Counted from the stretch's first letter, positions 37,478-54,330 are shown. The stretch: DNA of 64,000 nucleotides from an uncultured Dehalococcoidaceae bacterium (GCA_964493435.1 CAZBMB010000003.1:194016-258015); one strand, 5' to 3'. The notes: generated by a model not told the origin, from the letters alone. Program-made: numbers and translations.

Positions 37478-37495
37478 TCCTCACCATAGCCTGTG

Positions 37496-38515: not shown

Positions 38516-38536
38516 AAGTCCTCCTTTTATTTTGAT

Positions 38537-39559
38537 TTATAATTCTAACGTTATGGGCTGGTGGGTGGCGGCGGATTGCTTGGCGGCATCAATGATGGCC
38601 AGCTGAGTCAGTATCTGGAAATAGGTGACGATGGGCTCACGCTTCTGCGCGATGGCGCTCAGGAATTCCTGCATCTGGGCGGCAAACTGGTGAAAACGGG
38701 GAGTGTCACTTTTTACCACTTCGCCGTTGACCAGCAGGTCGCCGCTGAAAACGCCCACCATCTGTCCCGGAATATGACCGCCGCGCTGGACGATGTCTAT
38801 TCTACCCCTGGGGCCGGCAATCCAGCACTCGTGCTTTGTGGGCCTGTTATTGACAGAAAGGATATTAGTCGCCATGGAATCATCGTCAAAGCGCATGGTA
38901 ATGGTAATCTCGTCCATGCCTTCGAAATCGGGGTTAATGGAGCGGGCCTCAGCATAGATGCGCACCGGTTTTCTGCCCTCGTAAATCCATAGCGTGTAGT
39001 CAATGGTATGGGCGCCATACATGGTGAAGGCCATGCCACCGGTCTTGGCCTCATCCTTCCACCAGGGTGGGGCGGTATCTCTGGTAAAGGGGGCGGCGAA
39101 GATATAGAGCAGGTCAAAAGGCTGGCCGATTTCACCGTTTGCCACCCTCTGCTTGGCCTCCCACAGCGCCCACATGAAGCGGAACGACTGGCCGGCCATG
39201 AGGACCACCCCTTTTTCCTGGGCTTTGGCAAGCGTCTTCTTGCCCTCGGCCAGACTTAGCGCCCAAGGCTTCTCGATAAGGACGTGACGGCCGGCATCCA
39301 TGACCTGGCAGGCTACCGGGTGGTGGAGGTGGTGGGGCAGGCAGACAACGCATGCCTGTATCTCCGGGTCCTGTAACGCTTTTTCAACGCTGAGGTAATA
39401 TTTCGTCTTATGCCGCTCGGCCGTGGCACGGGCGCGCGTCTCATCGATGTCTACCACGGCGGCGACAAATGCCCGCTCTGAGTTCTGGCTGATGCCGTCC
39501 AGGTGGCTCTCGCCAATTCTGCCCAGCCCAATAACCGCAACGCCGATTTTATCCTGCAT
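38537..39559 (-). CDS. Gfo/Idh/MocA-family oxidoreductase
   Basis: Start refined to the ATG at 39559 (MQDKIGVAVIGLGRIG). A TATAAT (reverse strand) at 39602-39607 would put the track's upstream TTG start in the 5' UTR. Confidence 0.8.
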   Translation of the reverse strand: MQDKIGVAVIGLGRIGESHLDGISQNSERAFVAAVVDIDETRARATAERHKTKYYLSVEKALQDPEIQACVVCLPHHLHHPVACQVMDAGRHVLIEKPWALSLAEGKKTLAKAQEKGVVLMAGQSFRFMWALWEAKQRVANGEIGQPFDLLYIFAAPFTRDTAPPWWKDEAKTGGMAFTMYGAHTIDYTLWIYEGRKPVRIYAEARSINPDFEGMDEITITMRFDDDSMATNILSVNNRPTKHECWIAGPRGRIDIVQRGGHIPGQMVGVFSGDLLVNGEVVKSDTPRFHQFAAQMQEFLSAIAQKREPIVTYFQILTQLAIIDAAKQSAATHQPITLEL

Positions 39560-39712
39560 ACCTGATATAATTTCCTTTCCTGTTTTCCTGGTATCAGCCA
39601 ATTATAGAACAAAACGGCGCTGCAATAAAAAATTTCTACGATTTGAAGGACGGAAGTGGTTTGTAACACTTGAGGAAACTGAGGTTAGAAGAGAGATAAT
39701 TGGAAGTAGAGC

Positions 39713-39887: not shown

Positions 39888-40639
39888 TGGATGCACTAAA
39901 ACTAATTGAGGTTGCTGCACTGGCATTCCCTGCCGGTATGCTGATGGGGGTTATTGGGGGTGGAGGGGGTGGTTTCTATGTTATTATATTAACCTTTGTA
40001 TTCAATCTGCCCATTAAGCAGGCGATTGGTACAGCTTTAGCTACCAGCACGGTGACGGCACTGTCTGGAGTTATCGGGCACTGGCGTCACGGGAACCTAG
40101 AAAAAGAAAGTACCGTTTATCTTGGTGTCACCGGAGTATTGGGCGCTGTAGGTGGCGCTATTTTGGTCCAATATTTATCCTCCACCCTTTTAAAGTATAT
40201 GGTTGTAGTGTTTTTTGCCGTCATCGGTCTGCTGGGCCTCATTCGAACTAACCGTTGGCAATCGGGAAGTAAATTAACCCGGAAGAATAAGGTTACTTTA
40301 CTCATCCCGGCTGGTCTTATCTCGGGAATAGTAAGTGGTGCTTTCGGGTTGAGTGGTTCCACACCGCTGTCCTCTTATTTAATCTCTTTTACTTACCTAT
40401 CACCCCCGGTTGCCGTCGGCACGACGCTGACAGCAGTGCTAGCCACAAGTTTGGCCGGTGCTGTTGTCCATTATCAGCAGCAGGCTATAGATTTTAAGCT
40501 GGTACTGGTTATGAGTGCCGGGTCAGTTATCGGTGCTTACCTGGGGGCAAAACTAACTGCTGTCATAAATAAAAAAGTGCTGGCAATCGTCCTTGCCATA
40601 CTGGCTCTGGCATTCGCCGTTTATCTGGCATTACATTAA
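39887..40639 (+). CDS. TauE/SafE-family (sulfite/anion exporter-type) membrane protein
   Basis: 250 aa with about 8 TM helices, Gly-rich; typical TauE pattern. Confidence 0.75.
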   Translation: MDALKLIEVAALAFPAGMLMGVIGGGGGGFYVIILTFVFNLPIKQAIGTALATSTVTALSGVIGHWRHGNLEKESTVYLGVTGVLGAVGGAILVQYLSSTLLKYMVVVFFAVIGLLGLIRTNRWQSGSKLTRKNKVTLLIPAGLISGIVSGAFGLSGSTPLSSYLISFTYLSPPVAVGTTLTAVLATSLAGAVVHYQQQAIDFKLVLVMSAGSVIGAYLGAKLTAVINKKVLAIVLAILALAFAVYLALH

Positions 40640-40655
40640 CAATAAGGAGGGACTG

Positions 40656-41126
40656 ATGTCTGCAGAAAATGATGAGCTCATAGTAGCTGCCAGAGAAATC
40701 GTTGATAATCTTAAGGTCGTGGGCCAATTCTTGCGTCGCGTCACCGATGCCGACATCGCCCGCAGCGGTCTTACCGCCCCGCAAATAAGCGTTCTGGATG
40801 TGCTTGCTGAAACTGATGGCCTGAGCCTAAAAGAACTCAGCGATCGTGTAGCCTTGTCCCACAGTACCGTATCAGGCATCGTGGACCGCCTTCAACGCCG
40901 GGGGCTGGTACACAGACAACAAGATGCCATAGACCGCCGTTTTACCCGTATTTTCTTGGCGGAAAGAGTGAAAAATTACCTCCAAAATAAGATGCCTAGC
41001 TTCAAGCTAAATCCGCCAATTTTGGAAGCATTTCGCCCCGCTAATCCGGAAGAGAGAAGCCAAATTCAAGAAGGGCTAGCCACACTGCGCCGCCTCTTGG
41101 AAGAATATACTAAGCCTGCAAAATGA
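40656..41126 (+). CDS. MarR-family transcriptional regulator
   Basis: Start refined to the ATG at 40656 after AAGGAGGG. wHTH sequence LTAPQISVLDVLAETDGLSLKELSDRVALSHSTVSGIVDRLQRRGLV. Confidence 0.85.
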   Translation: MSAENDELIVAAREIVDNLKVVGQFLRRVTDADIARSGLTAPQISVLDVLAETDGLSLKELSDRVALSHSTVSGIVDRLQRRGLVHRQQDAIDRRFTRIFLAERVKNYLQNKMPSFKLNPPILEAFRPANPEERSQIQEGLATLRRLLEEYTKPAK

Positions 41127-41202
41127 TATAATTCGAATAGTCGGACGAGCATAATCAGTAGAGATAACCTCAAGCCTGTTACTAAGAAGGAAATTGAAAT
41201 AG

Positions 41203-41781
41203 ATGATTATAAATACGATTGCAGCCGTCGTGGTTATTATCACTGTCCAACTTTATTACGTGATATCGGAAACCAGGATGACCAAGCGCACTACACGGGG
41301 AATGGACAACTCGGCCGATAGGGGAACACGTAAGCTAGTGTGGATACTTAGTGCTATAGCTTTCGATGGCGCATGGCTCCCGGTAATATTTGGTTTCGGC
41401 AAACTGTTTGTTCTTGGTGCTTGGCTGACTTGGGTCGGTGTAGTTGTCATGATATCCGGAGTTGCCTTCCGGCAGTATGCAATCAATTCTCTGGGGAAGT
41501 TTTTTACGGCGACAGTTCAGATTCGTAAGAATCACCAATTGATCAAGGATGGCCCTTATCACCATATTCGGCATCCGTCATATTTAGGGCTCCTCATCTT
41601 AGCCCTGGGGAACGGTGTTGCTCTAGCCAACTGGATTTCCCTGCTGCTGTGCATCGCACTTCCGACAATCGGGATAATACGGCGAATTAAGGTAGAGGAG
41701 AAAGAATTGTACCGCCACTTCGGCGAGCAATATCAAGACTACCGGAAAAGCACCTGGCGTCTTATACCGCACGTATATTAA
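41203..41781 (+). CDS. isoprenylcysteine carboxyl methyltransferase (ICMT/PEMT)-family membrane methyltransferase
   Basis: 192 aa. Contains GPYHHIRHPSYLG...EEKEL. Confidence 0.75.
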   Translation: MIINTIAAVVVIITVQLYYVISETRMTKRTTRGMDNSADRGTRKLVWILSAIAFDGAWLPVIFGFGKLFVLGAWLTWVGVVVMISGVAFRQYAINSLGKFFTATVQIRKNHQLIKDGPYHHIRHPSYLGLLILALGNGVALANWISLLLCIALPTIGIIRRIKVEEKELYRHFGEQYQDYRKSTWRLIPHVY

Positions 41782-42097
41782 AAAGTCTGGCACATTGTCG
41801 ATTTTACAATTAAGTAGGTTGTTGACCAGGCATCATTGCACAATTTAGCGAATTGTTAAACCATGTAACATTTGCCCAAATTGTTAAATCACACAATCTG
41901 ACGCTTTGTTGCATAAGTCTTGTTTAAGCTGATTCATTTGCTAAATTAGCATCAACCGTTGTATCCATAATTAGATGCCAAGGAAATAGAAGAGACAAGA
42001 AGCTCTCTTACGATTATAACCGCACTTAAACAGAGCCTGTTGCCGTTTGACAAGAGCAGGTTATTGATATATTTTATTTCTATTGGGTGAGGGAGAA

Positions 42098-43753
42098 ATG
42101 GTTAGGAAGAAGGAAGAAGGGCAGCAAGTTAAGTACAGTGAAGACCTAGATTTATCCTTTCAGGCCATAGTTGATGGCATAGAAGATGAACTCATCGTTA
42201 TCGATAGAAAACACCGAGTCATATTTGCCAATGCAGCCGCACGCGGTAAATTACCTAAGGTAAGCGAGTCTCCCATTGGGGAGTTTTGCTATAAGATTCT
42301 GTATGGCAGATACAAACCTTGCACTACACCTCTTTGGGAGTGTCCTTTAAATAAAGTCCTGGAAAGCGGCAGGATAGTAACAGTCATCCACCCATCTCAC
42401 AACCTTGGCAATGATACATTTCTCGAGATCAGTGCCTATCCTGTTCATGACAGCAATGGTGATATCAAAGGCATAGTAGAGCTTAGGAGAGATGTTACTG
42501 CTTCTAAAGAGCTAGAAAGCCAAGTACTCAGGCAGCATCATGAGCTTTTAGCTTTGAGTCGGGTCTCGGCGGCACTGAGCGGGTTGTGGGACTTGGACGC
42601 TATCCTCAGGGTGGCCCTCAACAGTGTGTTGGATATCATGAATGGCAATATTGGGGGAATACTACTTTTTGATGAGCAGAAAAAGACGCTATCATATCGT
42701 GTCCACCAGGGTCTGAGCGCGAGATATGTTGAGGGTATACATCTCAATCCTGGGGAGGGGGTTGCAGGCAGGGTCGCTCAGACAGGTAAATCGCTTCTCT
42801 TGGAGGATATTTCAGCCGATCCTCGCCCCGCCAACCCCGACCTTATAAGTACGGAGGGCCTAAAAGCTTTTATCAGTGTTCCCCTCAGAGCGAAAGACAT
42901 GGTTCTAGGTGTTCTAAATGTTGCCAGCAAAATGCCACGTCAATTCACCGAAAACGACATGCACCTGCTAAATTCGATTGGGGACCAGGTCGGTGTTGCT
43001 ATTGAAGAGGCAAGTCTACACGAACGGCTGAGGAGGGCCAGGGAAAGGTACCAGAAGCTGGCGCGACAGACATTAATGGTGCAAGAGGAAGAACGCAAAA
43101 GACTAGCGGGTGAGCTGCACGATGAAACCAGCCAGGCGCTTTCCGGCATAGAACTCCAGTTGCAGGCATTAATAGATTCGCATGAGATGTCCGGCAGCAA
43201 AGACACCAGATTCGTTGCTGGATTGAAGAAGGTACAATCCTTAGCCATCCAAGTACATGGTGAGATAAGCCGGCTAATAGCTGCCCTCCGCCCTGCCCTT
43301 ATAGATACATTGGGACTAGTACCTGCTATCCGCCAGTATGCCGAGAACAGTCTCCGTCCTTTAGACATTAACCTGTCGGTGGAATCCGAGGGTATGGATA
43401 ACCGCTTGCCACCTGAGATTGAAGCCGGAATTTTCCGTTGGGCGCAGGGCGCCATCGGCAATATTGCTCAACATTCCAAAGCATTAAATGTGCGCATCAT
43501 TCTTAGATGTAAGGATAATGAGCTTTACATCGAGATAGCAGATGATGGTGTCGGCTTTGATGTTTCCAAAATCACTGATATTGAAGAAAGCGGACGTGGC
43601 CGGGGAGTATTCGGTATGAAAGAAAGGATTGGACTGCTCGGTGGTTCCTGTGGAATCAAGTCCAAACCCGGTCAGGGAACCATTGTCCGAGGCAGGGTGC
43701 CGATAAGCTTGGATGCTGAAAATGAAGCCAATAAAAGTAATAGTAGTAGATGA
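42098..43753 (+). CDS. cytoplasmic PAS-GAF sensor histidine kinase (HisKA_3/NarL-partner type)
   Basis: Start probably the ATG at 42098 after GAGGGAG. PAS domain with a Cys-rich insert, GAF domain, H-box AGELHDETSQ, and HATPase GRGVFGMKERIGLLGG. Confidence 0.85.
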   Translation: MVRKKEEGQQVKYSEDLDLSFQAIVDGIEDELIVIDRKHRVIFANAAARGKLPKVSESPIGEFCYKILYGRYKPCTTPLWECPLNKVLESGRIVTVIHPSHNLGNDTFLEISAYPVHDSNGDIKGIVELRRDVTASKELESQVLRQHHELLALSRVSAALSGLWDLDAILRVALNSVLDIMNGNIGGILLFDEQKKTLSYRVHQGLSARYVEGIHLNPGEGVAGRVAQTGKSLLLEDISADPRPANPDLISTEGLKAFISVPLRAKDMVLGVLNVASKMPRQFTENDMHLLNSIGDQVGVAIEEASLHERLRRARERYQKLARQTLMVQEEERKRLAGELHDETSQALSGIELQLQALIDSHEMSGSKDTRFVAGLKKVQSLAIQVHGEISRLIAALRPALIDTLGLVPAIRQYAENSLRPLDINLSVESEGMDNRLPPEIEAGIFRWAQGAIGNIAQHSKALNVRIILRCKDNELYIEIADDGVGFDVSKITDIEESGRGRGVFGMKERIGLLGGSCGIKSKPGQGTIVRGRVPISLDAENEANKSNSSR

Positions 43754-44372
43754 CCATACCATTGTCCGAGACGGCATTTGTGCCCTGCTGGCGCTTGTAC
43801 AGGACATTGAAGTTATTGGCGAAGCAAGTGGCGGAACTGAAGCGCTGAAGCTGGTCAAGAACTTGGCGCCAGATGTCGTGCTCATGGATATAGCCATGCC
43901 GGACATGGGTGGATTGGAAGCTACCCGTCGGATATGTAAAGAATTCCCCAAAACAAATGTGATCGTCCTGACGCAGCATGACGATAAGGAGTTCGTATTA
44001 CCCATTATCGAGGCCGGAGCCTTAGGGTTTATTAGCAAAATCGCCGCATCTTCCGAGCTTGCTTCAGGGATCAGGTCTGTCTTCCGCGGGGATTCCTATC
44101 TTTCTCCCTCGGTTGCCAAAGTTTTAATTGAAGATTATAAACAAAAAGGCAGCCGGGGTAGTTCTGACACCTACACCCAGTTAACCGAACGGGAGCGAGA
44201 AGTACTCCGATTAGCAGCGGAGGGACACACTACTCAGGAGATTGCGGACACATTAGTGATCAGTCCCAAAACAGTGGAAGGCCACAAGACGAGCCTCATG
44301 GCTAAGCTTGATATCCATAACCGTACTGAATTAATCAAATATGCCTTGCGCAAGGGCATCATTAGCGTTTAA
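43713..44372 (+). CDS. NarL/FixJ-family response regulator (REC + LuxR HTH)
   Basis: 219 aa. VVDDH...PDVVLMDIAMP...LTQH, then LTEREREVLRLAAEGHTTQEIA. Overlaps the end of the kinase gene. Confidence 0.9.
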   Translation: MLKMKPIKVIVVDDHTIVRDGICALLALVQDIEVIGEASGGTEALKLVKNLAPDVVLMDIAMPDMGGLEATRRICKEFPKTNVIVLTQHDDKEFVLPIIEAGALGFISKIAASSELASGIRSVFRGDSYLSPSVAKVLIEDYKQKGSRGSSDTYTQLTEREREVLRLAAEGHTTQEIADTLVISPKTVEGHKTSLMAKLDIHNRTELIKYALRKGIISV

Positions 44373-44642
44373 ACTCTGGCACACCTCTTGATTGCAATAT
44401 CAAGCTTCCGCGGAATATCCCCCCATGTCTATATGCACACTGCGGTTGAACGCTTTTCACAAGCCTGTCCAAGGGCAGGACTCCAGAGCGTGTGCAGGGG
44501 AAATTCCATCGAAATTCGAGAGTTAATACCTATTCACTTTGAGGGACAAACCGCTTTCCTGCCTATCTGAACTCAGTCTATTCTTACAGTAGTGGCTTAG
44601 AATATCCAGATGGCTGAAAATATGGGCAACAGGAGGCCCGAG

Positions 44643-45446
44643 ATGAGCATGAAAGCTAAAATTCTAATTGTCGATGATGATGTTGATTTTATAGAAGCGC
44701 TGAAGAAATCCTTGGAGACCAAGGGCTGTCAGGTGGTAATCGCGGGAAGCAAGGATGAGGCCACAGAAGTGGTTAACGACCAGAAGCTTGATATGGTCAT
44801 CGTGGGCACAATCAGACCTCGAGGCGCTGCATTTCAACTTCACGTTTGGCTGAAAGATACCCCGCAGTTCAGCGATATACCACTCCTTGTTATCGATGCC
44901 CCAGTAGAAGAGCGCTTAATCAAAGGGTGGCTCATGGATGAAGGCTTGGAGCTTCGGGCGGAAGATTATGTAAGTAAACCGATCAAATCGGCTTCACTTG
45001 TACCACGGATTGAAAAATTATTGGTTAAAGCAATCCACATGATCAAGGTGCTGGTGGTAGATGACCACGCGGTCGTCAGGGAAGGAATCCGCGCTTTGCT
45101 GGCCCTGCAAAAAGATATGGAAGTAATTGGTGAAGCTGAGAACGGGAAAGAAGCGATTGATAAAGTGCAGCAGTTACTTCCAGATGTGGTCTTAATGGAT
45201 ATCGTCATGCCCGTGATGAGCGGTTTAGATGCCACAAAGCGAATAAATAAAGATTGCCCTCAAACAAAGATTTTGATGCTAACTCAGTACGATGATAAAG
45301 AGAACATGTTTGTTGCCAAGCAGTCGGGAGCATACGGATTTGTCGCCAAAAAGGCTGCCAGTTCCGACCTTCTGACTGGTATTAGAACGGTCAGTGCTGG
45401 TAGATATTTCCCTCGAGCTTTTGCTTACGTAACCGCAAACTGGTGA
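44643..45446 (+). CDS. tandem receiver protein (pseudo-REC + NarL-type REC, no output domain)
   Basis: Start refined to the ATG at 44643, 6 nt after AGGAGG. REC1 has Gly where the phospho-Asp is expected (KLDMVIVGT). REC2 is canonical (PDVVLMDIVMP, LTQ, AKK). Confidence 0.8.
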   Translation: MSMKAKILIVDDDVDFIEALKKSLETKGCQVVIAGSKDEATEVVNDQKLDMVIVGTIRPRGAAFQLHVWLKDTPQFSDIPLLVIDAPVEERLIKGWLMDEGLELRAEDYVSKPIKSASLVPRIEKLLVKAIHMIKVLVVDDHAVVREGIRALLALQKDMEVIGEAENGKEAIDKVQQLLPDVVLMDIVMPVMSGLDATKRINKDCPQTKILMLTQYDDKENMFVAKQSGAYGFVAKKAASSDLLTGIRTVSAGRYFPRAFAYVTANW

Positions 45447-45458
45447 CAAGGCGCTCAT

Positions 45459-48152
45459 ATGGAAACGATAACTATCACGCTTGACGGAGTTGAAGTAAGC
45501 GGCCGTTCCGGGATGACCATCCTGGAGTTAGCTCAGGAATCAGGGATAGACATCCCAACTCTCTGTTACGACCCCTGTCTTATACCAACCGGCGCCTGTC
45601 GTGTCTGCTTGGTTGAGGATGAAAGTTCGGCAGCACTGCTAGCCTCTTGTGTCACCCCCATCAGAAGCGGAATGGTAATTAATACCCGGTCGGAGCGGGT
45701 AGTAGAGCGACGAAAGATAATCGTCCAACTCCTGCTGGCCAGCCATCCTGATTCCTGTCTGGTGTGTGACAAGGGTAACCGCTGTCAATTACGGGAATTA
45801 GCCTCCGAGATGGGTATAGGACTACTGGATTTCCCGCGAATCTCCCAACTGCATACTATCGAAGAAGTCAATCCATATATTGAACGAGACCTCTCCAAAT
45901 GTATCCTCTGCGCCAAATGTATTCGCTCTGACCACGAACTGGTTGTTGAAGGCGCTATCGATTATATCGGCCGTGGATTCAGTTCCAAACCGGCAACAAT
46001 TGATGATTTACCACTGGAGAAGTCTGAGTGCACCTTTTGCGGCACTTGCGTGGCCCTATGCCCTACTGGCGCTCTAATCGAAAAGGAGAGGACATATCGT
46101 GGTACAACTACATCTAGTGTAGAGACGGTGTGCCCTTTTTGTGGTTGCGGATGTGGCCTTCGCCTGGAAACTAAAGGTAACCGCCTAGTACGTGTAAGTC
46201 CAAATGCCAAGAGTCCCGTGAATCGCAATACTCTTTGTGTAAGAGGGAGTTACGGCTTTGACTTTGTGCATAGTCCGGATAGATTGACCAGTCCTTTAAT
46301 CAGGTCGGGTGACGACTTCCAAACGGCATCATGGGAGCAAGCTTTAAATTTGATATCGGATGAATTCAAGCGCATAAAGGAGCGGCATGGTCCCGATAGC
46401 CTAGCTATTCTTGGCTCTTCCAAGTGCACCAATGAGGAAAACTATTTGCTGCAGAGATTCGCAAGGGCAGCACTGGGTACCAACAACATCGATAACGGCA
46501 GCCGAATGTATAACCCGCCAACCAGAATCGGGCTGGGATGGACCATTGGAATTCCAGGGACCACAAACGAGCTGGATGATTTGGAAAAGTCAGAGGTGGT
46601 AATGGTTGTTGGCGCCAATCCAGCGGTCTCTGCCCCGGCTGTGGGCTACGCCATAAAGCGCGCTGTTAAGTATAAGGGGGCCAAGCTGGTACTCGTTGAT
46701 CCAAGAGAAACCAGCCTGGCGCCGTTCGCACATCTATGGCTGAGGCCACTGGTCGGAACTGATGCCGTATTGCTGAGTGCTATGTCAAGGGTGATAGTTG
46801 AGGAAAGACTATTCGACGAGGAGTTTATCACCCGCAGAGCAGACAACTATGCGGAATTTGAAATAAGCTTGCAGTTATATACTCCGAAAAAGGTGGAGGA
46901 AATAACCGGTGTCTTCTGTGAAGATGTACAACTTGCTGCCCGCCTCTTTGCTGCGGCGGAGAGTGCTTCTATAGTTTACGGCAATGGAATCGCCCAGCAA
47001 GCCAACGCCATCAGCAGCGTCATGGCCTTAGCGAACCTTGCGATGTTAACTGGGAACATCGGTCATCGGGGAGGGGGTATCTTTGCCCTGCAGCGGGAGA
47101 ACAATGCCCAAGGAGCCTGTGATATGGGTAGTTTACCTGATTTCCTTCCCGGATATCAGGGTTTGGAGGAGGCTGAGGCGAAACAGAAATTCGAGGCAAG
47201 GTGGAAAGTTTCTTTGCCAACCAGCGCCGGGCTTAACGCTTTAGAAATGATGGAAGAAGTAAAAAAAGGGAAGATCAAGGGAATGTTAATCGTAGGGGAA
47301 AATCCAGTTTCAAGTTTTCCTTGCCCTTCACGGGTTAGGGAAGCGCTATCCTCTCTTGAATTTTGCGCCGTATCCGATCTTTTCCCTACCGAAACGGTGA
47401 AATTAGCTGACGTGGTTCTGCCTACCGCCAGTTTTGCCGAGAAAGAGGGAACATTCACCAACTTTGAAGGCAGGGTTCAGCACCTAGGCAAGGCCATTGA
47501 GCCCCTTGGCGATAGCCTGCCGGATTGGAGGATTGTCCTTCAATTGGCCAACCGGATGGGCCACCAAATGCCTTATGCCTCCCCACAGGAGGTTACGGAT
47601 GAGATTAAGGAATTGGTTCCCCTGTACCGGCACCTGGGCTATACCGATATAAATAATCGAGAGCTCGATTTGACTGATTTGGAAAATGACCGTTTAGGTG
47701 TAAAGCGTTTGCACAAAGGACCTTTTCCAAGTGGATTCGGGCGGTTTGCCCAAGTGGATTATAGCCCTACGCCAGATGGTCTCGGTAAGGAATATCCCTT
47801 TACTCTCATAGTGGGATCAATACTGCATCATTTTGGCAGTGGCACCAGGAGTTTTAGAGCATCACGTTTGAAAAAATTTTCGTCACATGCCTGGCTGGAA
47901 ATCGGTGGGGCTGATGCTAAAGCTTTTGGTTTTCACGATGGTGATAGAGTTAAAATCGTCTCACCATGTGGTGAAATAACTGCCATCTTGAGGTTAACGG
48001 AAACACTACCACTAAGAACGCTTTTTCTGCCGATGTCATTTCCGGAGAGTCCTTCAAATGAGCTTTTCAGTGTTACTCCAGATCTTCAGGATAAAATCCC
48101 TTCATTTAAAAGCTGTCTGGTAAGACTGGAAAGGGTTGATAGGAATGGTTAA
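45459..48152 (+). CDS. FdhA/NuoG-like FeS + molybdopterin-fold subunit with substituted formate dehydrogenase active-site residues
   Basis: 897 aa. 2Fe-2S (CYDPC...CRVC), H-x3-C-x2-C-x5-C, two ferredoxin motifs, and a MopB 4Fe-4S (CPFCGCGC...LCVRG). The Sec/Cys-His position reads GSRMYNPPT. Confidence 0.85.
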   Translation: METITITLDGVEVSGRSGMTILELAQESGIDIPTLCYDPCLIPTGACRVCLVEDESSAALLASCVTPIRSGMVINTRSERVVERRKIIVQLLLASHPDSCLVCDKGNRCQLRELASEMGIGLLDFPRISQLHTIEEVNPYIERDLSKCILCAKCIRSDHELVVEGAIDYIGRGFSSKPATIDDLPLEKSECTFCGTCVALCPTGALIEKERTYRGTTTSSVETVCPFCGCGCGLRLETKGNRLVRVSPNAKSPVNRNTLCVRGSYGFDFVHSPDRLTSPLIRSGDDFQTASWEQALNLISDEFKRIKERHGPDSLAILGSSKCTNEENYLLQRFARAALGTNNIDNGSRMYNPPTRIGLGWTIGIPGTTNELDDLEKSEVVMVVGANPAVSAPAVGYAIKRAVKYKGAKLVLVDPRETSLAPFAHLWLRPLVGTDAVLLSAMSRVIVEERLFDEEFITRRADNYAEFEISLQLYTPKKVEEITGVFCEDVQLAARLFAAAESASIVYGNGIAQQANAISSVMALANLAMLTGNIGHRGGGIFALQRENNAQGACDMGSLPDFLPGYQGLEEAEAKQKFEARWKVSLPTSAGLNALEMMEEVKKGKIKGMLIVGENPVSSFPCPSRVREALSSLEFCAVSDLFPTETVKLADVVLPTASFAEKEGTFTNFEGRVQHLGKAIEPLGDSLPDWRIVLQLANRMGHQMPYASPQEVTDEIKELVPLYRHLGYTDINNRELDLTDLENDRLGVKRLHKGPFPSGFGRFAQVDYSPTPDGLGKEYPFTLIVGSILHHFGSGTRSFRASRLKKFSSHAWLEIGGADAKAFGFHDGDRVKIVSPCGEITAILRLTETLPLRTLFLPMSFPESPSNELFSVTPDLQDKIPSFKSCLVRLERVDRNG

Positions 48153-48630
48153 AGCAAAGAAAATCACGAAAGCCGATCTCAAGCGAATAGGCAAAATCGT
48201 AGCTGAATACCGGGAGCAAAAATGGTCGCTGATTCCGCTTTTGCAGGAGGTTCAAGATACACTGGGCTATATACCCTCGGAGGCGATTCCGCGCATTGCG
48301 AGGAGTCTGGGGCTGTTTCCCAGCCAAGTCCAGGGGGTGATAACTTTCTACTCCCAGCTCTATACAGAACCACGAGGGAAAAACGTTGTCAGGGTGTGTC
48401 GGGGGACCGCTTGCCACGTGCGTGGCGGTAAGACAATACTGAAACTTGTCAAGCAGCAGCTTGGCATTGAAGAGGGAGAAACGACGCCAGATATGGAATA
48501 TACCCTAGAGACAGTTGCCTGCATCGGCGTCTGCGCGCTGGCACCGAACATAGTCGTTAATCAGGCTACGCACGGTCACATGAACCCCAAGAAAGTGGCC
48601 TATTTATTCAGCAGGAAGGAAGAGGCCTAA
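48136..48630 (+). CDS. NuoE/HydC-like thioredoxin-fold [2Fe-2S] subunit
   Basis: 164 aa (start at 48136 or 48145). Contains VCRGTACHVRG...VACIGVCALAP. Confidence 0.85.
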   Translation: MIGMVKAKKITKADLKRIGKIVAEYREQKWSLIPLLQEVQDTLGYIPSEAIPRIARSLGLFPSQVQGVITFYSQLYTEPRGKNVVRVCRGTACHVRGGKTILKLVKQQLGIEEGETTPDMEYTLETVACIGVCALAPNIVVNQATHGHMNPKKVAYLFSRKEEA

Positions 48631-48633
48631 AAC

Positions 48634-51600
48634 ATGTTGCAGCATCGCACCATTTATGTCTGTCGAGGCACCGGATGCGTCTCCGGTGGTGGCGACGCCG
48701 TTTTTCAGGCACTCAGTACTGAAGTGCTCAAGCAGCAAGTGAAGAATATTGCTGTAGACTTCACCGGTTGCCATGGCTTTTGCCAGCAGGGACCAAATGT
48801 CATCGTTGAGCCGGAGGGTATTTTTTATACCCACGTAGCGCCGGGGGATGCCGCCGAGATAGTAACCTCGCATCTAAAGAACGGAAAACCAGTGGAGCGA
48901 CTTTTCTACCGCGATCCGATGACCGACGAGGCGGTACCACACTACGCTGATATCAATTTCTACCAGAAACAGGAGCGCGTTATTCTGCGCCATTGCGGGC
49001 ATATTAATCCAGAGAAAATCGATGATTACCTTGCCGGTGACGGATATCAAGCTTTACGCAAGGTCCTGTTCCATATGACGCCAGAACAGGTGATTGAGGA
49101 GATTCAAAAATCTGGACTTCGGGGCCGCGGCGGTGCCGGATTTCCAACCGGACGCAAATGGGAGTTCTGTCGCAATGCTGCCGGTTCACAAAAGTACGTT
49201 ATCTGCAATGCCGATGAAGGCGACCCCGGTGCTTTTATGGACCGGTCCATACTTGAGGCTGACCCTCATGCTGTTATCGAAGGCCTGACTATCGCCGCTT
49301 ATGCAGTCGGTGCGGCCGAGGGCTATATCTACGTCCGTGCCGAGTATCCTCTTGCCGTGTCCCGACTTCACACCGCCCTCGCTCAGGCCCGGGAAAGGGG
49401 ATATCTGGGGGATAATATACTGGACTCCGGCTTCAATTTCACCGTACACCTCAAGGAAGGCGCCGGGGCCTTTGTCTGCGGGGAGGAAACGGCGCTGATT
49501 GCCTCCATTGAGAGCCTCCGCGGTATGCCCCGCCCCCGCCCGCCGTTTCCCGCTCAGTCAGGTCTGGATGGTAAACCCACCATCATCAACAACGTAAAAA
49601 CGCTGGCTTCCATCCCGGTCATCATTGAACATGGCGCCGATTGGTTTGCAGACATTGGTACGGAGAAAAGCAAGGGCACGGTGGTATTTGCCCTTACCGG
49701 CAAGATTGCCAATAGCGGTCTGGTAGAGGTACCTATGGGCACCCCGTTGTCTCATATTATCTATGATGTTGGCGGCGGTATTCCTCGAGACAAGCGTCTC
49801 AAAGCGGTGCAAACCGGTGGCCCGTCAGGTGGCTGCATTCCGGCCCGCTTCATTGACCTGCCCGTAGACTACGAATCGTTAAAAGGGCTGGGCTCAATAA
49901 TGGGGTCTGGCGGCATGGTGGTGATGGATGAGACCACCTGTATGGTCGAGATAGCGAGATACTTTCTCAGTTTCACCCAGGATGAGTCCTGCGGTAAATG
50001 TACCCCGTGCCGCTTGGGTACCAAACAGATGCTGGAAATCCTGACCCGAATCACGGAAGGAAAAGGGCAGGAAGAAGACATTGACACATTGCTTACCATT
50101 GCGGCTACGGTCAAAGAGTGCTCATTATGCGGCCTCGGTCAGACTTCGCCTAACCCGGTACTGACCACCATCAATTATTTCCGGGATGAATATGAAGCAC
50201 ACATCAGAGAAAAAAGGTGTCCGGCCGCTGTTTGCGATGCTCTGATGATCTCACCATGCCAGCATACCTGTCCGGTGGGCGTCAATATTCCAAAGTATGT
50301 GGCTCATATCGCCGCTGGCGAATATCGGGAGGCAATTAACACCATCAGAGAGCGCAATCCCTTTCCCGCTATCTGTGGCCGTATATGCCATCACCCCTGC
50401 GAATCCAGGTGTCGCCGTGGAGAGCTGGATGATCCGGTAGCCATAAGAGAACTCAAGCGTTTTGCCTCCGACTGGTCTTTCAAGCATGTAAAAGAAGATC
50501 CTATACCATTTCCACAGACAAAAGGCCAGCATGTAGCAGTGGTCGGGGCCGGCCCCACGGGTTTATCTTGCGCCTACTTTCTGGCACAGATGGGCTATCC
50601 GGTGACCGTTTTTGAAGCCCTCCCCATAGGCGGTGGCATGCTGTCGGTGGCGATACCTGAATTTAGATTGCCTCACGAGATAATTCAAAAGGAGATAGAT
50701 TTCATTGCCAAGAAAGGAGTAGAGATAAGGTACAATACTCCCATAAACGTCAATTTCACGGTGGAAGACCTCAGAAAAGACGGTTATGATGCCGTCTTTA
50801 TCGCTTCTGGTGCCCAGAGAAGTCAGCGCATCGGAATTCCCGGTGAACTAGAGGATGCCGCCGGTTTCTATTACGGGCTGCGGTTCCTGAGAGATATCAA
50901 ACTGGGCAGGCAGGTTGATATTGGCCATCGGGTAGTGATTATCGGCGGTGGCAACGTAGCTCTGGATACGGCTCGCTCGTCACTTCGGCTTGGCGCTGAT
51001 GAAGTGAGTATCTTTTACCGTCGGTCGCGTGAGGAAATGCCAGTTACCGAGGTGGAATACGACCAAGCTATCGCCGAAGGTATAAAAGTCAATTATCTGG
51101 TCAGTCCGACCAGAATCGAAAGCGAGAACTGGAAGGTAACCGGCCTGCAGTGTATCCGGATGAGCCTCGGGGAACCTGACGAGAGCGGTCGCCGACGGCC
51201 AATCCCAATCGCTGGCTCGGAATTCTTTGTCCCGGCAGATACCGTGATTGCTGCCGTCGGCCAAGCCCCTGACCTGTCCTTTCTGCCCGCCGATAGCGCG
51301 CTGGAACGCACCCGCTGGGAGACCCTGGTTGTAGATAGCAATTCCCTAGCGACAAATGTTAGCGGTATTTTCGCCGGTGGCGATTTTGTTACCGGGCCGG
51401 CTATGGTGATAGACGCCATTGCTGCGGGGAGAAGAGGGGCTATCGCCATCGACAAATACCTGAAAGGCGATGTTTCCAAGGTCCAGATTTACGACCTGAA
51501 AACGAAAATTGTCAGTGCAGCACCCGAACAGGAAGTTGAAGAATCCTGGGAAGAACAGCCAAGGGTTTCTGCACCAACACTTCCTGTTCAGAGAAGAAAG

Positions 51601-51690
51601 GCGAGCTTTGATGAAGTTGAACTTGCTTTTTCGGCAAAGAAGGCCGCGCAGGAGGCTAAACGCTGTCTAAGATGTGACTTAGAGGGGTAA
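48634..51690 (+). CDS. NuoF/HydB-like FMN/NADH subunit fused to a GltD/NfnB-like FAD/NADPH domain
   Basis: 1018 aa. N-terminal 2Fe-2S Trx-like domain, GLRGRGGAGFPTGRKWEF, and CGKCTPCRLGT. These are followed by a Cys-rich GltD N-terminal region, VAVVGAGPTGLSCAYFLA and VVIIGGGNVALDTA. Confidence 0.85.
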   Translation: MLQHRTIYVCRGTGCVSGGGDAVFQALSTEVLKQQVKNIAVDFTGCHGFCQQGPNVIVEPEGIFYTHVAPGDAAEIVTSHLKNGKPVERLFYRDPMTDEAVPHYADINFYQKQERVILRHCGHINPEKIDDYLAGDGYQALRKVLFHMTPEQVIEEIQKSGLRGRGGAGFPTGRKWEFCRNAAGSQKYVICNADEGDPGAFMDRSILEADPHAVIEGLTIAAYAVGAAEGYIYVRAEYPLAVSRLHTALAQARERGYLGDNILDSGFNFTVHLKEGAGAFVCGEETALIASIESLRGMPRPRPPFPAQSGLDGKPTIINNVKTLASIPVIIEHGADWFADIGTEKSKGTVVFALTGKIANSGLVEVPMGTPLSHIIYDVGGGIPRDKRLKAVQTGGPSGGCIPARFIDLPVDYESLKGLGSIMGSGGMVVMDETTCMVEIARYFLSFTQDESCGKCTPCRLGTKQMLEILTRITEGKGQEEDIDTLLTIAATVKECSLCGLGQTSPNPVLTTINYFRDEYEAHIREKRCPAAVCDALMISPCQHTCPVGVNIPKYVAHIAAGEYREAINTIRERNPFPAICGRICHHPCESRCRRGELDDPVAIRELKRFASDWSFKHVKEDPIPFPQTKGQHVAVVGAGPTGLSCAYFLAQMGYPVTVFEALPIGGGMLSVAIPEFRLPHEIIQKEIDFIAKKGVEIRYNTPINVNFTVEDLRKDGYDAVFIASGAQRSQRIGIPGELEDAAGFYYGLRFLRDIKLGRQVDIGHRVVIIGGGNVALDTARSSLRLGADEVSIFYRRSREEMPVTEVEYDQAIAEGIKVNYLVSPTRIESENWKVTGLQCIRMSLGEPDESGRRRPIPIAGSEFFVPADTVIAAVGQAPDLSFLPADSALERTRWETLVVDSNSLATNVSGIFAGGDFVTGPAMVIDAIAAGRRGAIAIDKYLKGDVSKVQIYDLKTKIVSAAPEQEVEESWEEQPRVSAPTLPVQRRKASFDEVELAFSAKKAAQEAKRCLRCDLEG

Positions 51691-51726
51691 CACCTTAGAC
51701 ATTACTAGCTTGATGGGAGGGCTATC

Positions 51727-52371
51727 ATGAAATCAATAACCAGACAGAAACCGCTGGAAGAAATACAGGAGCAATTGGCTAACCTTGATCATGTATTCAT
51801 TATTGGTTGCGGTACGTGCACGACTATGACTAAAACCGGCGGGATCGACCAAGTTCTGGAGATGAAGGATCATCTTTTGGAGATAGGTAAACGGGTCAGT
51901 GGCTGGACCGTTATCCCGACCGCCTGCGACGAGATGACCGAGGCAGCAATGAAGGAAAACAGGCGAGCGATTGAAAACGCAAATTGCATTCTGATAATGA
52001 CCTGTGCCTTGGGGGTACACCGGATAAATTCGTATATTGACCGGCCTGTAGTACCGGCACTGGATACTCTGTTCATAGCTGTAGAAGAGGCTCCGGGATA
52101 CTTCCGTGAGGTTTGCGTCCAGTGCGGTCAATGCGTCTTAGGTGAAACTGCTGGTATCTGCCCGATTACCAATTGCCACAAGGGACTGGTCAATGGCCCA
52201 TGTGGCGGCACCAATAACGGCAAGTGCGAGGTTGATAAGGAAAAAGATTGTGCCTGGACCCTTATCTACGAGCGTCTGAAAGCGCAGGGGCGTCTTGATT
52301 TGATGCGCAAGTATCAGCCTCCACATAATTACCAGGTAATGCCCCGGCCGAGAACCATCAAAATAGAATGA
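51727..52371 (+). CDS. metV: MetV (methylene-THF reductase C-terminal-domain FeS/zinc-ribbon subunit)
   Basis: 214 aa. Contains IIGCGTCTT...CVQCGQCVL...CPITNCHKGLVNGPCGG...GKCEVDKEKDCAW. Confidence 0.8.
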   Translation: MKSITRQKPLEEIQEQLANLDHVFIIGCGTCTTMTKTGGIDQVLEMKDHLLEIGKRVSGWTVIPTACDEMTEAAMKENRRAIENANCILIMTCALGVHRINSYIDRPVVPALDTLFIAVEEAPGYFREVCVQCGQCVLGETAGICPITNCHKGLVNGPCGGTNNGKCEVDKEKDCAWTLIYERLKAQGRLDLMRKYQPPHNYQVMPRPRTIKIE

Positions 52372-52388
52372 GCGAGGAGGTTAGGATA

Positions 52389-53279
52389 ATGGTGTCGCGC
52401 TTTCGAGATGCTTTAAACTCCGGAAAGTTCGTCATTACCAGTGAGGTGGCACCGCCAAAGGGAACCAACATCGATAAAATGCTCCACCATATTGACCTAC
52501 TTAAAGACAAGGTGGACGCCATTAACGTCACTGACCACCAGAGCTCGGTCATGCGTTTCCCTTCCCTTGGCGGTTGCCTCGCCATTAAGGAGCGGGGTGG
52601 TGAGCCTGTTTTACAGATGACCTGCCGGGATCGTAACCGCCTGGCACTTCAGGCTGAACTCCTGTTAGCGCATACACGGGGGATCAACAATGTCCTTTGC
52701 CTTACTGGTGATGCTATTCCTGTAGGGGACCACAAGGAAGCCAAAGGTGTCTTTGATTTCGATTCGGTTCAGTTATTAAAGGCCATCCGTGGCATGGAAT
52801 CGGGCCAGGATATGGGAAGTAATAGTCTCGATGGGTCTGTGGAATTTTGCGCTGGTGCCATTGTCACTCCGGAAGCCCAACCAATCGAGCCCCAGCTCAT
52901 CAAGTTTGAAAAAAAGGTTGAGGCAGGTGCCGAGTTCTTTCAAACCCAGGCCATCTATGACCTTGAGAATTTCGGCAAGTTCATGCAATACGCGCGACAG
53001 TTTCCAGTGAAAATACTGGCCGGCATCGTTCTATTGTCCTCCGCGAGAATGGCCAAGTACATGAATGAAAATGTTCCCGGTATCTTCGTGCCTCAAGACC
53101 TGGTTGATGAATTAGGTAGCGTTGCTAAGGAGGAGATGTTGACCAAAGGTATTGAGATTGCCGGGCGTATGATAGCCACATTGAAAAAGGAGGCCATCTG
53201 CGATGGCGTCCATATCATGGCTATTGCCAAAGAGGAAGTGGTCCCCGATATCCTTGTCGCTGCCGGACTCGAAGTTTGA
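52389..53279 (+). CDS. metF: 5,10-methylenetetrahydrofolate reductase MetF
   Basis: Start probably the ATG at 52389, 8 nt after GAGGAGG (alternative start 52368 overlaps the metV stop). Contains FVITSEVAPPKG...LTGD.... Confidence 0.8.
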   Translation: MVSRFRDALNSGKFVITSEVAPPKGTNIDKMLHHIDLLKDKVDAINVTDHQSSVMRFPSLGGCLAIKERGGEPVLQMTCRDRNRLALQAELLLAHTRGINNVLCLTGDAIPVGDHKEAKGVFDFDSVQLLKAIRGMESGQDMGSNSLDGSVEFCAGAIVTPEAQPIEPQLIKFEKKVEAGAEFFQTQAIYDLENFGKFMQYARQFPVKILAGIVLLSSARMAKYMNENVPGIFVPQDLVDELGSVAKEEMLTKGIEIAGRMIATLKKEAICDGVHIMAIAKEEVVPDILVAAGLEV

Positions 53280-53422
53280 TTGGGCTATTACTTGGATCAA
53301 AACAAGTTTCTAACAAAAAATTGCATCGTTGCCTATTTAACAAAAGTCTGTTTTGTATTATTCGGGTAATAACCGTTCCTTTTTTAATTTCATCATTTAG
53401 CTACAAGCATTTAGCTTTGGCA

Positions 53423-53450
53423 TTGACCGCACCTTTATTGGTGATATAAT
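53423..53450 (+). promoter_or_regulatory. strong promoter (TTGACC-16-TGaTATAAT, extended -10) giving a leaderless mRNA
   Basis: The -10 box ends at 53450 and the ATG of the next ORF is at 53457, which is the expected transcription start position. Confidence 0.6.
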
Positions 53451-53456
53451 TCGCAT

Positions 53457-53768
53457 ATGACCATTAATAAAGGATTAATAACCATAATTATTGCCTGCAT
53501 AACTTCAATACTTATTGTTCTAGCATTTATCAAAGACAGCTTGGTTAGTGTTTTTGTGGCTATTGGAACATTATCACTTGCTGCAATTACATGGTGGAGT
53601 ATTTCCAGTAGCGACCGCAGAGAGCGTCGCCGCACACAATCCGAGATAGATAAAGAAGACCGCGATAGAACCGAGCGATATTTAAATGAAATCATCAGCT
53701 GGTTAACAGCACTTGAAGGGCGAATATTCCAATCGGGAAAACCTATAGCTGAAGAGCATGGAGGATGA
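53457..53768 (+). CDS. small two-TM protein with highly charged C-terminal helix (hypothetical)
   Basis: 103 aa. Two hydrophobic helices, then SSSDRRERRRTQSEIDKEDRDRTERYL. Sits in an AT-rich context. Confidence 0.5.
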   Translation: MTINKGLITIIIACITSILIVLAFIKDSLVSVFVAIGTLSLAAITWWSISSSDRRERRRTQSEIDKEDRDRTERYLNEIISWLTALEGRIFQSGKPIAEEHGG

Positions 53769-54042
53769 GCAAGTTTTTGTTGATACAACGAGAGCTGAGT
53801 TTCTGTCGTTCTCATTTCTTGATGAGTTGATCTTTTGGCTTGCAGGTTCTCGCAATATGGGGAAAGCTGTGTTTATTATTGACAATACGGTTATTGAGGA
53901 TAAATTGTCACGTATTGCTGCTATTCGTGGTGTAGACGTTCACTATAAAACTGCCACGAGTAGTGAAATTGCACTATTATCTCCTACGGTCAGGTCAAAC
54001 GTAAATTCGCGGTTTGTACCAGTGAAAACTGCCCTAAAATAA
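53758..54042 (+). CDS. small soluble protein, possibly STAS-like (DUF4325-type) fold (hypothetical)
   Basis: 94 aa; overlaps the previous ORF by 11 nt. VFVDTTRAEFLSFSFLDELIFWL resembles the DUF4325 core, from memory only. Confidence 0.4.
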   Translation: MEDEQVFVDTTRAEFLSFSFLDELIFWLAGSRNMGKAVFIIDNTVIEDKLSRIAAIRGVDVHYKTATSSEIALLSPTVRSNVNSRFVPVKTALK

Positions 54043-54069
54043 TAAATATCGCCCGATTGACAGCAAATA

Positions 54070-54104
54070 AATGCCCACCGATTATAGTCGGTGGGCATTT
54101 TCTC
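54070..54104 (+). terminator. strong intrinsic terminator
   Basis: 12-bp perfect stem AATGCCCACCGA/TCGGTGGGCATT, 6-nt loop, then TTTCTCTCTC. Confidence 0.75.
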
Positions 54105-54246
54105 TCTCTCGATAAACGTTATTACTGGTAAAGGCGTTTTAAAGCTAACTTTTTTAATAGGCTTAAAAGATTAGTAGCAAATCAGTAAAAAGTAATCCCC
54201 TGTCTTGATAATTTAGCTTGAAAACAGGAGATTATTATTGTCTTAA

Positions 54247-54320
54247 TAGCGCATACCGGATTCGAACCGGTGATCTCCTCCTTGAGAGGGAGGTGTCCTA
54301 AACCCCTAGACGAATGCGCC
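54247..54320 (-). tRNA. tRNA-Glu (anticodon CTC)
   Basis: Hand-folded from GGCGCAT-TC-GTCTAGGGGTTTAGGAC-A-CCTCC-CTCTCAA-GGAGG-AGATC-ACCGG-TTCGAAT-CCGGT-ATGCGCT-A. CCA is not encoded. Confidence 0.9.
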
Positions 54321-54330
54321 ACCAGACTGG

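Follow-up and report, generated by a model that had tools for sequence, protein, structure and literature searches.

A formate dehydrogenase-like protein with replaced catalytic residues in a putative methylene-tetrahydrofolate reductase operon of an uncultured Dehalococcoidaceae bacterium

A 64,000-nucleotide stretch of one strand from an uncultured Dehalococcoidaceae bacterium (GCA_964493435.1 CAZBMB010000003.1:194016-258015; the whole stretch is called the window below) carries at 45459..48152 on the + strand an uninterrupted reading frame for an 897-amino acid protein related to FdhA and FdsA, the alpha subunits of NAD-dependent formate dehydrogenases (FDHs). Judged by its sequence, this FdhA-like protein is not a formate dehydrogenase, as the metal ligand, the histidine next to it and the substrate-positioning arginine have all been replaced. 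We propose, with a probability of about 0.7, that it is a catalytically dead paralog of the FDH alpha subunit that now serves as the NuoG/BfuA-type iron–sulfur subunit of a five-gene "X-type" MetFV methylene-tetrahydrofolate (methylene-THF) reductase. We favor this role as an electron wire because the catalytic residues are lost and the cluster ligands invariant, because the operon is strictly linked to MetVF, and because the accompanying NuoE and NuoF parts are of the Bfu type; the precedents of NfnA and Stn, together with mention of the X-type arrangement in the literature, point the same way. FDH-derived wire subunits are a known kind of protein, and the gene arrangement has already been noted but not characterized.

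Former active site and iron–sulfur ligands

We identified the protein as a pseudo-formate dehydrogenase from Pfam, NCBIfam and PDB-sequence matches, alignments and an AlphaFold2 (AF2) model. Its Pfam domains follow the order Fer2_4, NADH-G_4Fe-4S_3, Fer4_Nqo3, Molybdop_Fe4S4, Molybdopterin and Molydop_binding, which is the complete architecture of an NAD-dependent FDH alpha subunit; the N-terminal parts are a Fer2_4 [2Fe-2S] domain, an NADH-G domain with a His-ligated [4Fe-4S] cluster and an Nqo3-type ferredoxin domain with two clusters. The protein scores 671.9 bits against the NCBIfam model TIGR01591 (Fdh-alpha), a margin of 5.6 bits over the curated cut-off of 666.25, and 363 against the NuoG model TIGR01973, below the cut-off of 470. 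Because the TIGR01591 cut-off is passed, NCBI and JGI automatically give its database homologs the name "formate dehydrogenase subunit alpha", a misnaming that can mislead pathway reconstructions. The closest solved sequences found with HMMER are 9wxb_B (1e-174), Rhodobacter capsulatus 6tg9_A (3e-171), Bacillus subtilis ForCE/YjgC and Escherichia coli FdhF (1e-129); matches to solved FdsA-type FDHs overall have E values of 1e-171 to 1e-175, and NuoG and NfnA/StnC score much lower than the solved FDHs.

The residue register was taken from two alignments that agree, one made with HMMER against NAD-dependent FDH alpha subunits of solved structure (9wxb_B) and one made with MAFFT that includes the E. 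coli fdhF and nuoG products taken from MG1655. A preliminary description of the protein, aligned by eye against FdhF strings that match the MG1655 fdhF product exactly, had read the selenocysteine (Sec) or Cys ligand of molybdenum as Tyr and the neighboring His as Asn. Both alignments give the same register, placing FdhF CCARVUHGPS opposite NGSRMYNPPT, with no Cys or Sec at the ligand position: FdhF U140 (C386 in RcFdsA) becomes Tyr351, codon TAT at 46509-46511, and H141 becomes Asn352. The former ligand loop as a whole, G347-S-R-M-Y351-N352 in place of FdhF C136-A-R-V-U140-H141, is encoded at 46497..46514 (+) and was delimited from alignments, codons and clade conservation. FdhF VRGQNNVQGACDMG pairs with LQRENNAQGACDMG in both alignments, so that R333 and G334 correspond to Gln545 and Arg546; the catalytic Arg is lost and an Arg stands one position later, the same displacement that had been noticed by eye. 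This segment, Q545-R546-E547 for FdhF R333-G334-Q335, lies at 47091..47099 (+), again placed from alignments, clade conservation and codons. The roles of the adjacent His and the substrate-positioning Arg in FDH have been described elsewhere (PMC7171172). Other features first noted by eye likewise proved accurate: FdhF K44, the Lys between the proximal cluster and the pterin, is Arg262, giving LCVRG for FdhF LCLKG (usually LCxKG); the first ferredoxin motif, expected as CxxCxxCxxxC, reads CILCAKCIRSD, with Asp158 (codon GAC, 45930..45932, +; alignment and clade counts) at the position of the fourth Cys; and the GANPA, GENP and NAQGACDMG motifs are all present.

Comparison with homologs indicates that these substitutions define a clade and are neither a sequencing error nor chance. 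In a scan of one genome per species (GTDB), more than 560 species-representative genomes encode a relative of the FdhA-like protein, and clade counts refer to the query plus the best 80 of these >560 loci, nearly all from Dehalococcoidia, Dehalococcoidales or Chloroflexota metagenome-assembled genomes (MAGs). Among these 81 sequences, 77 have Tyr at the ligand position, two have Cys, and His and Ser occur once each; Gln545 is found in 79. Asp stands at position 158 in 49 sequences and Cys in 31, and at position 262 Arg (58) outnumbers Lys (23). Several replaced pocket residues are near-invariant in the clade (G347, R349, Y351, A392, Q545 and G671). We also collected 120 database sequences at 66–87% identity, and the 108 that fit the loop motif pattern have Tyr at the ligand position in all but one, which has Phe; nearly all close homologs carry LQRENNAQGACDMG and CILCAKCIRAD. 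The clade of Tyr-containing paralogs for which the preliminary description had proposed a phylogeny is thus borne out by 77 of 81 species representatives and 107 of 108 close homologs. Selenocysteine recoding or a sequencing error at the ligand codon is ruled out by the TAT codon in an open frame and by Tyr in 77/81 species, and a pseudogene or decaying gene by conservation and intact synteny.

Canonical FdhAs that keep the Cys-His-Arg-Lys residues and an all-Cys ferredoxin motif are also present in Dehalococcoidales, in a different gene context with no MetVF, so the Tyr form is a distinct paralog and not the product of lineage-wide drift. In a neighbor-joining tree of the MopB part, the query clade stands beside a block of degenerate FdhA-like proteins, and canonical Cys-His-Arg enzymes follow further down the tree order. 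The operon-verified distant proteins fall in this degenerate block, three of them through their nearest representatives, and most members of the block have the Asp marker. A Dehalococcoidales gene cluster (L092 / L093, 2219-12000) encodes NuoE, a NuoF with a C-terminal ferredoxin domain, a fusion of a BfuA N-terminus to GltD, a Cys-type FdhA and an NfnSL-like pair; its gene content suggests an FDH linked to NAD(P)H and ferredoxin and makes it a plausible ancestor of the five-gene module, and the FdhA-like protein itself probably derives from a Bfu-type FDH of this sort. A suspected Sec-type FDH beside the operon in the Dehalococcoidales genome L001 was rejected, as the truncated MopB gene downstream of MetF is DmsA-like and interrupted by Ns. 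The top match of a family-profile search, protein P0123 (1405 amino acids), is a much longer relative: its N-terminal ~700 residues share 40% identity with the query, further ferredoxin-type domains are present, and Glu-His-Arg occupies the three catalytic positions.

We assessed cluster ligands in a family set of 94 sequences at 38–100% identity to the query, in which all 19 of the 19 Cys/His ligands are invariant. The predicted ligands are C36/C47/C50/C64 for a [2Fe-2S] cluster and, for four [4Fe-4S] clusters, H96/C100/C103/C109, C148/C151/C154/C201, C191/C194/C197 plus D158, and C225/C228/C232/C260, the last being the MopB cluster. Across the operon family, the position of the molybdenum ligand is occupied by Y, H, S, C, L, T, P or a gap, and that of Arg333 by Q, D, G, L, V or A. 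On the evidence of these alignments, selection holds the cluster chain most tightly and leaves the catalytic residues free to vary, and the alternation of Asp and Cys at position 158 suggests a cluster that persists whichever of the two is its ligand. The chain of R. capsulatus FDH leads from bis-molybdopterin guanine dinucleotide (bis-MGD) through A1, A2, A3, A5 and B6 to flavin mononucleotide (FMN), with the His-ligated A4 off the path (PMC7171172). By the usual rule for ferredoxin folds, Asp158 would be a ligand of the cluster equivalent to A2 of this enzyme, which bridges to the MopB [4Fe-4S] cluster.

The five-gene operon and its partner subunits

The FdhA-like gene is the first of five in an operon whose successive junctions measure −17 (or −8), 3, 36 and −4 nucleotides, and no membrane nuo genes adjoin it. 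It is followed on the + strand by a NuoE/BfuC-like [2Fe-2S] thioredoxin-like subunit (48136..48630; Pfam, NCBIfam and PDB-sequence matches), a 1018-amino acid NuoF/BfuB-like subunit fused to a GltD/NfnL-like module, here NuoF::GltD (48634..51690; Pfam and PDB-sequence matches), MetV (DUF5981), the Cys-rich small subunit of MetFV-type methylene-THF reductase (51727..52371; Pfam, sequence and synteny), and MetF, the catalytic subunit of methylene-THF reductase (MTHFR) (52368..53279; Pfam, PDB matches to MTHFRs and synteny). The start of MetF overlaps the stop of MetV by 4 nucleotides, and the true start of the NuoE-like gene is likely the ATG at 48145, which would leave an overlap of 8 nucleotides with the FdhA-like stop.

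The partner subunits point to relatives among bifurcating enzymes. NuoE has its best solved relatives in HydC and NfnC of such enzymes. Residues 6-538 of the fusion, the NuoF part, match the HydB of an A. mobile NiFe hydrogenase (7e-239), HydB 7q4v_B (1e-220), NfnB (3e-207) and StnB (5e-200) best, versus ~1e-124 for Nqo1 and FdsB. This part comprises an N-terminal [2Fe-2S] domain, whose Cys motif is visible in the sequence, an FMN/NADH site and one [4Fe-4S] cluster; the GltD part has two [4Fe-4S] clusters, a GAGPTG motif for flavin adenine dinucleotide (FAD) and an NADPH-type GGGNVA motif, of the GxGxxA form that Kremp et al. tied to NADP(H) (PMC7483475). Residues 540-1015 align to residues 102-567 of NfnA/StnC and also to NfnL and DPD-type proteins, and a CxxC tail, …AKRCLRCDLEG, closes the fusion at window positions 51660-51690. 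The operon has the Bfu-type arrangement, in that a multi-cluster BfuA-type subunit is encoded with a BfuB (NuoF-like, with an N-terminal [2Fe-2S] domain) and a BfuC (NuoE-like). The canonical C-terminal domain of BfuB with two [4Fe-4S] clusters (B3/B4) is absent, and from about residue 540 a GltD/NfnL-like module with two clusters of its own takes its place. MetF has weak matches to solved MTHFRs, and a PDB-sequence search found no solved relative of MetV.

The linkage of this operon to MetVF is strict across two phyla. Wherever a related locus extends 5.3 kb or more downstream, NuoE, NuoF, GltD, MetV and MetF follow the FdhA-like gene in order (39 of 39 such loci). The same operon accompanies all seven of the homologs at 42–50% identity to the query that we looked up, one of them ending at a contig edge after NuoF::GltD, and these distant carriers include a Syntrophobacteraceae MAG, a MAG labeled Pseudomonadota and metagenome contigs. 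Median identity to the query across related loci is 61% for the FdhA-like protein versus 72–81% for NuoE, NuoF, GltD, MetV and MetF, which makes it the fastest-evolving member of the operon, yet a well-conserved one. We also noticed an extra MetF paralog without MetV directly upstream of the FdhA-like gene in three loci (L086 7093-7968, L087 7116-7988 and L091 5933-6811) and, beside the X-type operon of the Syntrophobacteraceae locus (L085 3758-7552), a GltD/FlpD-type flavoprotein with a MetV-MetF pair of its own.

Genes for signal transduction stand immediately upstream. On the + strand, a sensor histidine kinase with PAS, GAF, HisKA_3 and HATPase_c domains (42083..43753; Pfam) has a homolog upstream in most of the 80 related loci, a LuxR/NarL-type response regulator with REC and GerE domains (43713..44372; Pfam and NCBIfam) is syntenic in related loci, and a double receiver-domain protein with two Response_reg stretches and no output domain (44610..45446; Pfam) is conserved upstream in related loci and ends 12 nucleotides before the FdhA-like start codon. 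Two-component genes are thus usually found upstream of the operon in these 80 loci, and their position suggests dedicated two-component control of the methylene-THF reductase operon. Receiver-domain or kinase genes adjoin the distant operons L086, L087, L089, L090 and L091 as well.

In the literature that we found, only two papers, Yi et al. 2021 and Frank et al. 2016, mention a similar gene order, and none examines it biochemically or structurally. In the parts of Yi et al. that bear on it, NuoEFG-homolog genes lie upstream of metFV in Dethiosulfatarculus sandiegensis, whose MetFV falls in phylogenetic group III; the authors call this an unstudied "X type" of MTHFR, speculate on bifurcation and place it "widely in Desulfobacterales and Chloroflexi" (PMC8515935). 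The query operon likewise has NuoE-, NuoF- and NuoG-like genes immediately upstream of metV-metF, and the carrier taxa agree. The X type is known as a gene arrangement alone, and the relevant passages speak of a NuoG homolog only, with no mention there of a full-length FdhA with replaced catalytic residues or of a NuoF::GltD fusion (PMC8515935). Frank et al. described "a second formate dehydrogenase" beside nuoE, nuoF and a metVF pair, detected every product in the metaproteome and read the cluster as a link between CO2 reduction and methylene-THF reduction (PMC5080403).

Proposed electron path and competing explanations

We infer that the five products form a complex that may lack a pterin, and that its electron path, nucleotide specificity and possible bifurcation would be as follows. 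NADH would react at the FMN of NuoF and NADPH at the FAD of the fused GltD-like domain. Electrons would pass along the FdhA-like subunit from the [2Fe-2S] cluster through the two [4Fe-4S] clusters of the ferredoxin domain, the second ligated by Asp158 or Cys, to the MopB [4Fe-4S] cluster, and from there through the clusters of MetV to the flavin of MetF, where methylene-THF would be reduced. Where an organism operates the Wood-Ljungdahl pathway backwards, the flow would be reversed, and coupling to ferredoxin by bifurcation or confurcation may be possible because the NuoE and NuoF parts are of the Bfu type. Methylene-THF reduction has an E0' of −200 mV, and its coupling to energy conservation is a long-standing open point. 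With its subunit list now defined, the five-gene module is a concrete and widespread candidate for a further type of this reductase, linked to NADH, NADPH and possibly ferredoxin.

The MopB part of the subunit proved better kept than such a role might suggest. An AF2 model built from the 94-sequence alignment reached a pLDDT of 84.6 and a pTM of 0.88; an earlier model from 30 sequences at 66–87% identity (pLDDT 59, pTM 0.41) was discarded. In Foldseek comparisons, query-normalized template modeling (TM) scores were 0.93 for ForCE1 and 0.91 for Methylorubrum extorquens FDH1 and Rhodobacter FdsA, and the model matched FdhF with a TM of 0.90 (target-length normalized) and E. coli NuoG with a TM of 0.72–0.73 at an rmsd of 7.6–10 Å. 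In this model, the four-domain MopB fold with its N-terminal proximal [4Fe-4S] cluster is present and far better preserved than that of NuoG. As a further measure we took the 105 MopB columns whose conservation among 45 canonical FDHs is 85% or more; the canonical FDHs keep a mean of 94% of these residues, the Tyr clade 76%, other operon-family members 55–78% and E. coli NuoG 33%. The differences between the Tyr clade and true FDHs concentrate around the active-site motifs, the replaced positions including FdhF K44, C136, A137, U140, H141, H181, P331, R333, G334, Q335, V338, R460, R581 and H655. In some operon-family members (for example, P0138, P0127 and P0135), the GxNP or DPR dinucleotide-binding motifs have decayed.

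Some of these results weigh against our proposal of a wire subunit, as do two points about its neighbors. For a scaffold, MopB is unusually well kept, with 76% of FDH-conserved residues versus 33% in NuoG and a model that superimposes on holo-FDHs with a TM of 0.91–0.93, and the clade's most conserved parts include the Tyr351 loop and the LQRENNAQGACDMG segment; given this strong conservation of MopB and its pocket, the subunit may still bind a pterin, or the pocket may have some other role. Stn of Sporomusa ovata was purified without MetVF though the genes are adjacent, so adjacency is no proof of a complex (PMC7483475). The C-terminal two-cluster domain of BfuB has been reported as essential for bifurcation in HydABC (PMC11829005), and since GltD replaces it here, Bfu-type bifurcation cannot be assumed. 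The preliminary description had concluded that the protein is no ordinary FDH, and had offered as one of two options a cofactor-less electron-transfer scaffold like NuoG. As regards function, this is the better supported of the two options. Its electron-transfer half agrees with the invariant iron–sulfur ligands, the varied active site and the Bfu-type and MetVF neighbors, whereas the cofactor-less half is less certain in view of the 76% of FDH-conserved residues and the structural match to holo-FDHs; a NuoG-like role is nonetheless plausible, and what that description missed was the five-gene MetVF context.

The best-placed alternative, though we think it improbable, is that the FdhA-like protein, NuoE and NuoF::GltD form a stand-alone transhydrogenase of the Stn/NfnABC type, acting on NADH, NADPH and ferredoxin and merely cotranscribed with a separate MetVF, in which case the Fdh-like domain would be a remnant side branch as in NfnA. 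StnABC and NfnABC, Bfu-type NADH-dependent ferredoxin:NADP+ oxidoreductases (PDB 8oh5, 9bov and 9n5u), share the same set of NuoE-, NuoF-, GltD/NfnL- and Fdh/NuoG-like cofactor modules, and stnABC of S. ovata adjoins metVF. Kremp et al. 2020 purified StnABC (NuoE, NuoF plus GltD/NuoG-like) as a three-subunit enzyme that had once been annotated as FDH and showed no formate activity (PMC7483475). In the cryo-EM structure of NfnABC, the Fdh/NuoG-like domain of NfnA has an incomplete pterin site with no pterin density and was called a dead-end evolutionary remnant by its authors (PMC11829005), and the relevant part of Yi et al. indicates that Clostridium ljungdahlii MetVF alone is able to use reduced ferredoxin (PMC8515935). 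Against such a separation, MetV-MetF follows the trio in every locus examined, both in Chloroflexota and in the Syntrophobacteraceae MAG, with short or overlapping junctions, and in the portion of Yi et al. that treats phylogeny the MetFV of this arrangement forms its own group (PMC8515935). The fusion also differs from that of Stn and Nfn: theirs places GltD on the N-terminus of the NuoG-like subunit, in three genes, whereas in the query, with five genes, it sits on the C-terminus of NuoF (B, not A) in place of the C-terminal cluster domain of BfuB. Their Fdh-like part is truncated, its match ending near query residue 557-570, whereas the query is complete and includes domain IV.

Far less likely, in our estimation, is that the FdhA-like protein is still an enzyme with molybdenum or tungsten (Mo/W) bound to bis-pyranopterin, with Tyr351 or no protein residue as ligand, acting on a substrate other than formate or relaying electrons to MetV by way of the pterin. 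The protein has kept most of the motifs for dinucleotide binding (GANP, DPR, GENP and DxFxTET...LP...AEKEGTFTN), the six replaced pocket residues listed above are near-invariant in the clade, the rare residues at position 351 there, Cys, His and Ser, are all possible metal ligands, and the cluster chain is intact as far as the MopB [4Fe-4S] cluster. Genes for mobB, moeA and a mobA-like protein also lie 4.5–7 kb downstream of the FdhA-like gene in the window, but a molybdenum cofactor gene is nearby in only 1 of 83 related loci, and such linkage was ruled out as evidence for cofactor binding. In orthologs of this operon, the ligand position can be L, T, P or a gap and the GxNP/DPR motifs can be decayed (for example, P0138, P0127 and P0135), so the complex can do without a metal site. 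One close homolog has Phe at that position, and FDH-conserved residues that presumably belong to the pterin shell are replaced at FdhF K44, H181, R460, R581 and H655. The second option of the preliminary description, a molybdoenzyme with Tyr as a novel ligand, fares badly on the same grounds, as the ligand position varies among Y, H, S, C, L, T and P within one operon family and several pterin-shell residues are replaced; a Tyr-ligated metal site in the FdhA-like protein is unlikely, and we know of no Tyr-ligated enzyme of this molybdoenzyme family. A version confined to the Dehalococcoidia clade, to which we likewise give little credence, would retain the Mo/W-bis-pyranopterin with Tyr351 as ligand or redox-active relay, and its conserved pocket (NGSRLY / LQRENNAQGACDMG) would serve a new reaction or the hand-over of electrons from the proximal cluster to MetV. 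If this were true, the Tyr351 site would be the first Tyr-type site in the dimethyl sulfoxide reductase superfamily, inside a new bifurcating methylene-THF reductase.

A genuine formate dehydrogenase with noncanonical residues that couples CO2 reduction to methylene-THF reduction would fit the TIGR01591 score, the NCBI and JGI naming of the homologs and the reading by Frank et al. of a similar cluster as joining the first and last steps of the pathway (PMC5080403), but with the metal ligand, adjacent His and substrate-positioning Arg all absent, canonical Cys-His-Arg FdhAs of Dehalococcoidales in a different gene context and Stn, also annotated as FDH, without formate activity (PMC7483475), we consider it barely credible.

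As a wire subunit, the FdhA-like protein would represent an intermediate stage in the passage from molybdoenzyme to wire, between true FDHs and the fully degenerate NuoG, with its fold and most dinucleotide-binding motifs intact and its catalytic residues gone. It shares domain order, five iron–sulfur sites and overall fold with NAD-dependent FDH alpha subunits (R. capsulatus FdsA 6tg9, M. extorquens FDH1, B. subtilis ForCE YjgC and E. coli FdhF), but lacks their Cys/Sec ligand, His and Arg, has Arg for Lys44 and uses Asp as one cluster ligand. Like NuoG/Nqo3, the 75-kDa subunit of complex I, it would be an FDH-derived electron wire beside NuoE and NuoF with a degenerate molybdopterin site; unlike it, the query retains the additional bridging cluster, equivalent to A2, by which the MopB cluster is wired to the chain and which Thermus thermophilus complex I lacks (PMC7171172). 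Another Chloroflexota FDH homolog with a replaced Cys/Sec position is the FDH-like subunit of Dehalococcoides organohalide respiration complexes, which has been summarized as having Ser at this position and no formate activity (PMC5736913). That subunit is membrane-associated, of the FdnG type, and works with a hydrogenase and reductive dehalogenases, whereas the query is cytoplasmic, of the FdsA type, and occurs with NuoEF and MetVF.

Surroundings of the operon in the window

A promoter and terminator scan of 41.7–54.6 kb gave no decisive signals for the operon boundaries, and an Rfam scan returned two tRNAs and nothing else. These are a tandem tRNA-Glu(CTC) and tRNA-Gln(CTG) on the − strand (54246-54401), followed by a terminator-like hairpin with a 13-bp stem (54069-54100, −) with a promoter-like site (54442-54413) ahead of them. 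Together, these elements delimit the MetF operon region on its downstream side. The ~0.8 kb after MetF (53280-54069) contains no Pfam-recognizable gene, and the open reading frames at 53435-53815 (−) and 53758-54042 (+) had no matches. A near-consensus sigma-70-like promoter (11/12 matches plus TG) is located at 53423-53450 (+).

Farther downstream, the − strand region 57084-60351 holds a DUF362 gene followed by mobB, moeA and a mobA-like nucleoside triphosphate transferase gene, from which the source organism is probably able to make bis-MGD. The regulator and operon region (40001-56000) has a G+C content of 0.47–0.52 versus 0.55–0.58 in window positions 1-28000. Upstream of the regulators, a catabolic-looking block on the − strand (29821-39601) encodes a TRAP transporter (DctP, DctQ and DctM), an IclR regulator, two short-chain dehydrogenases, a Zn-alcohol dehydrogenase, a GFO/IDH/MocA oxidoreductase, a cyclase (on the + strand) and a double glyoxalase-fold protein, and it appears unrelated to the FdhA-like operon.

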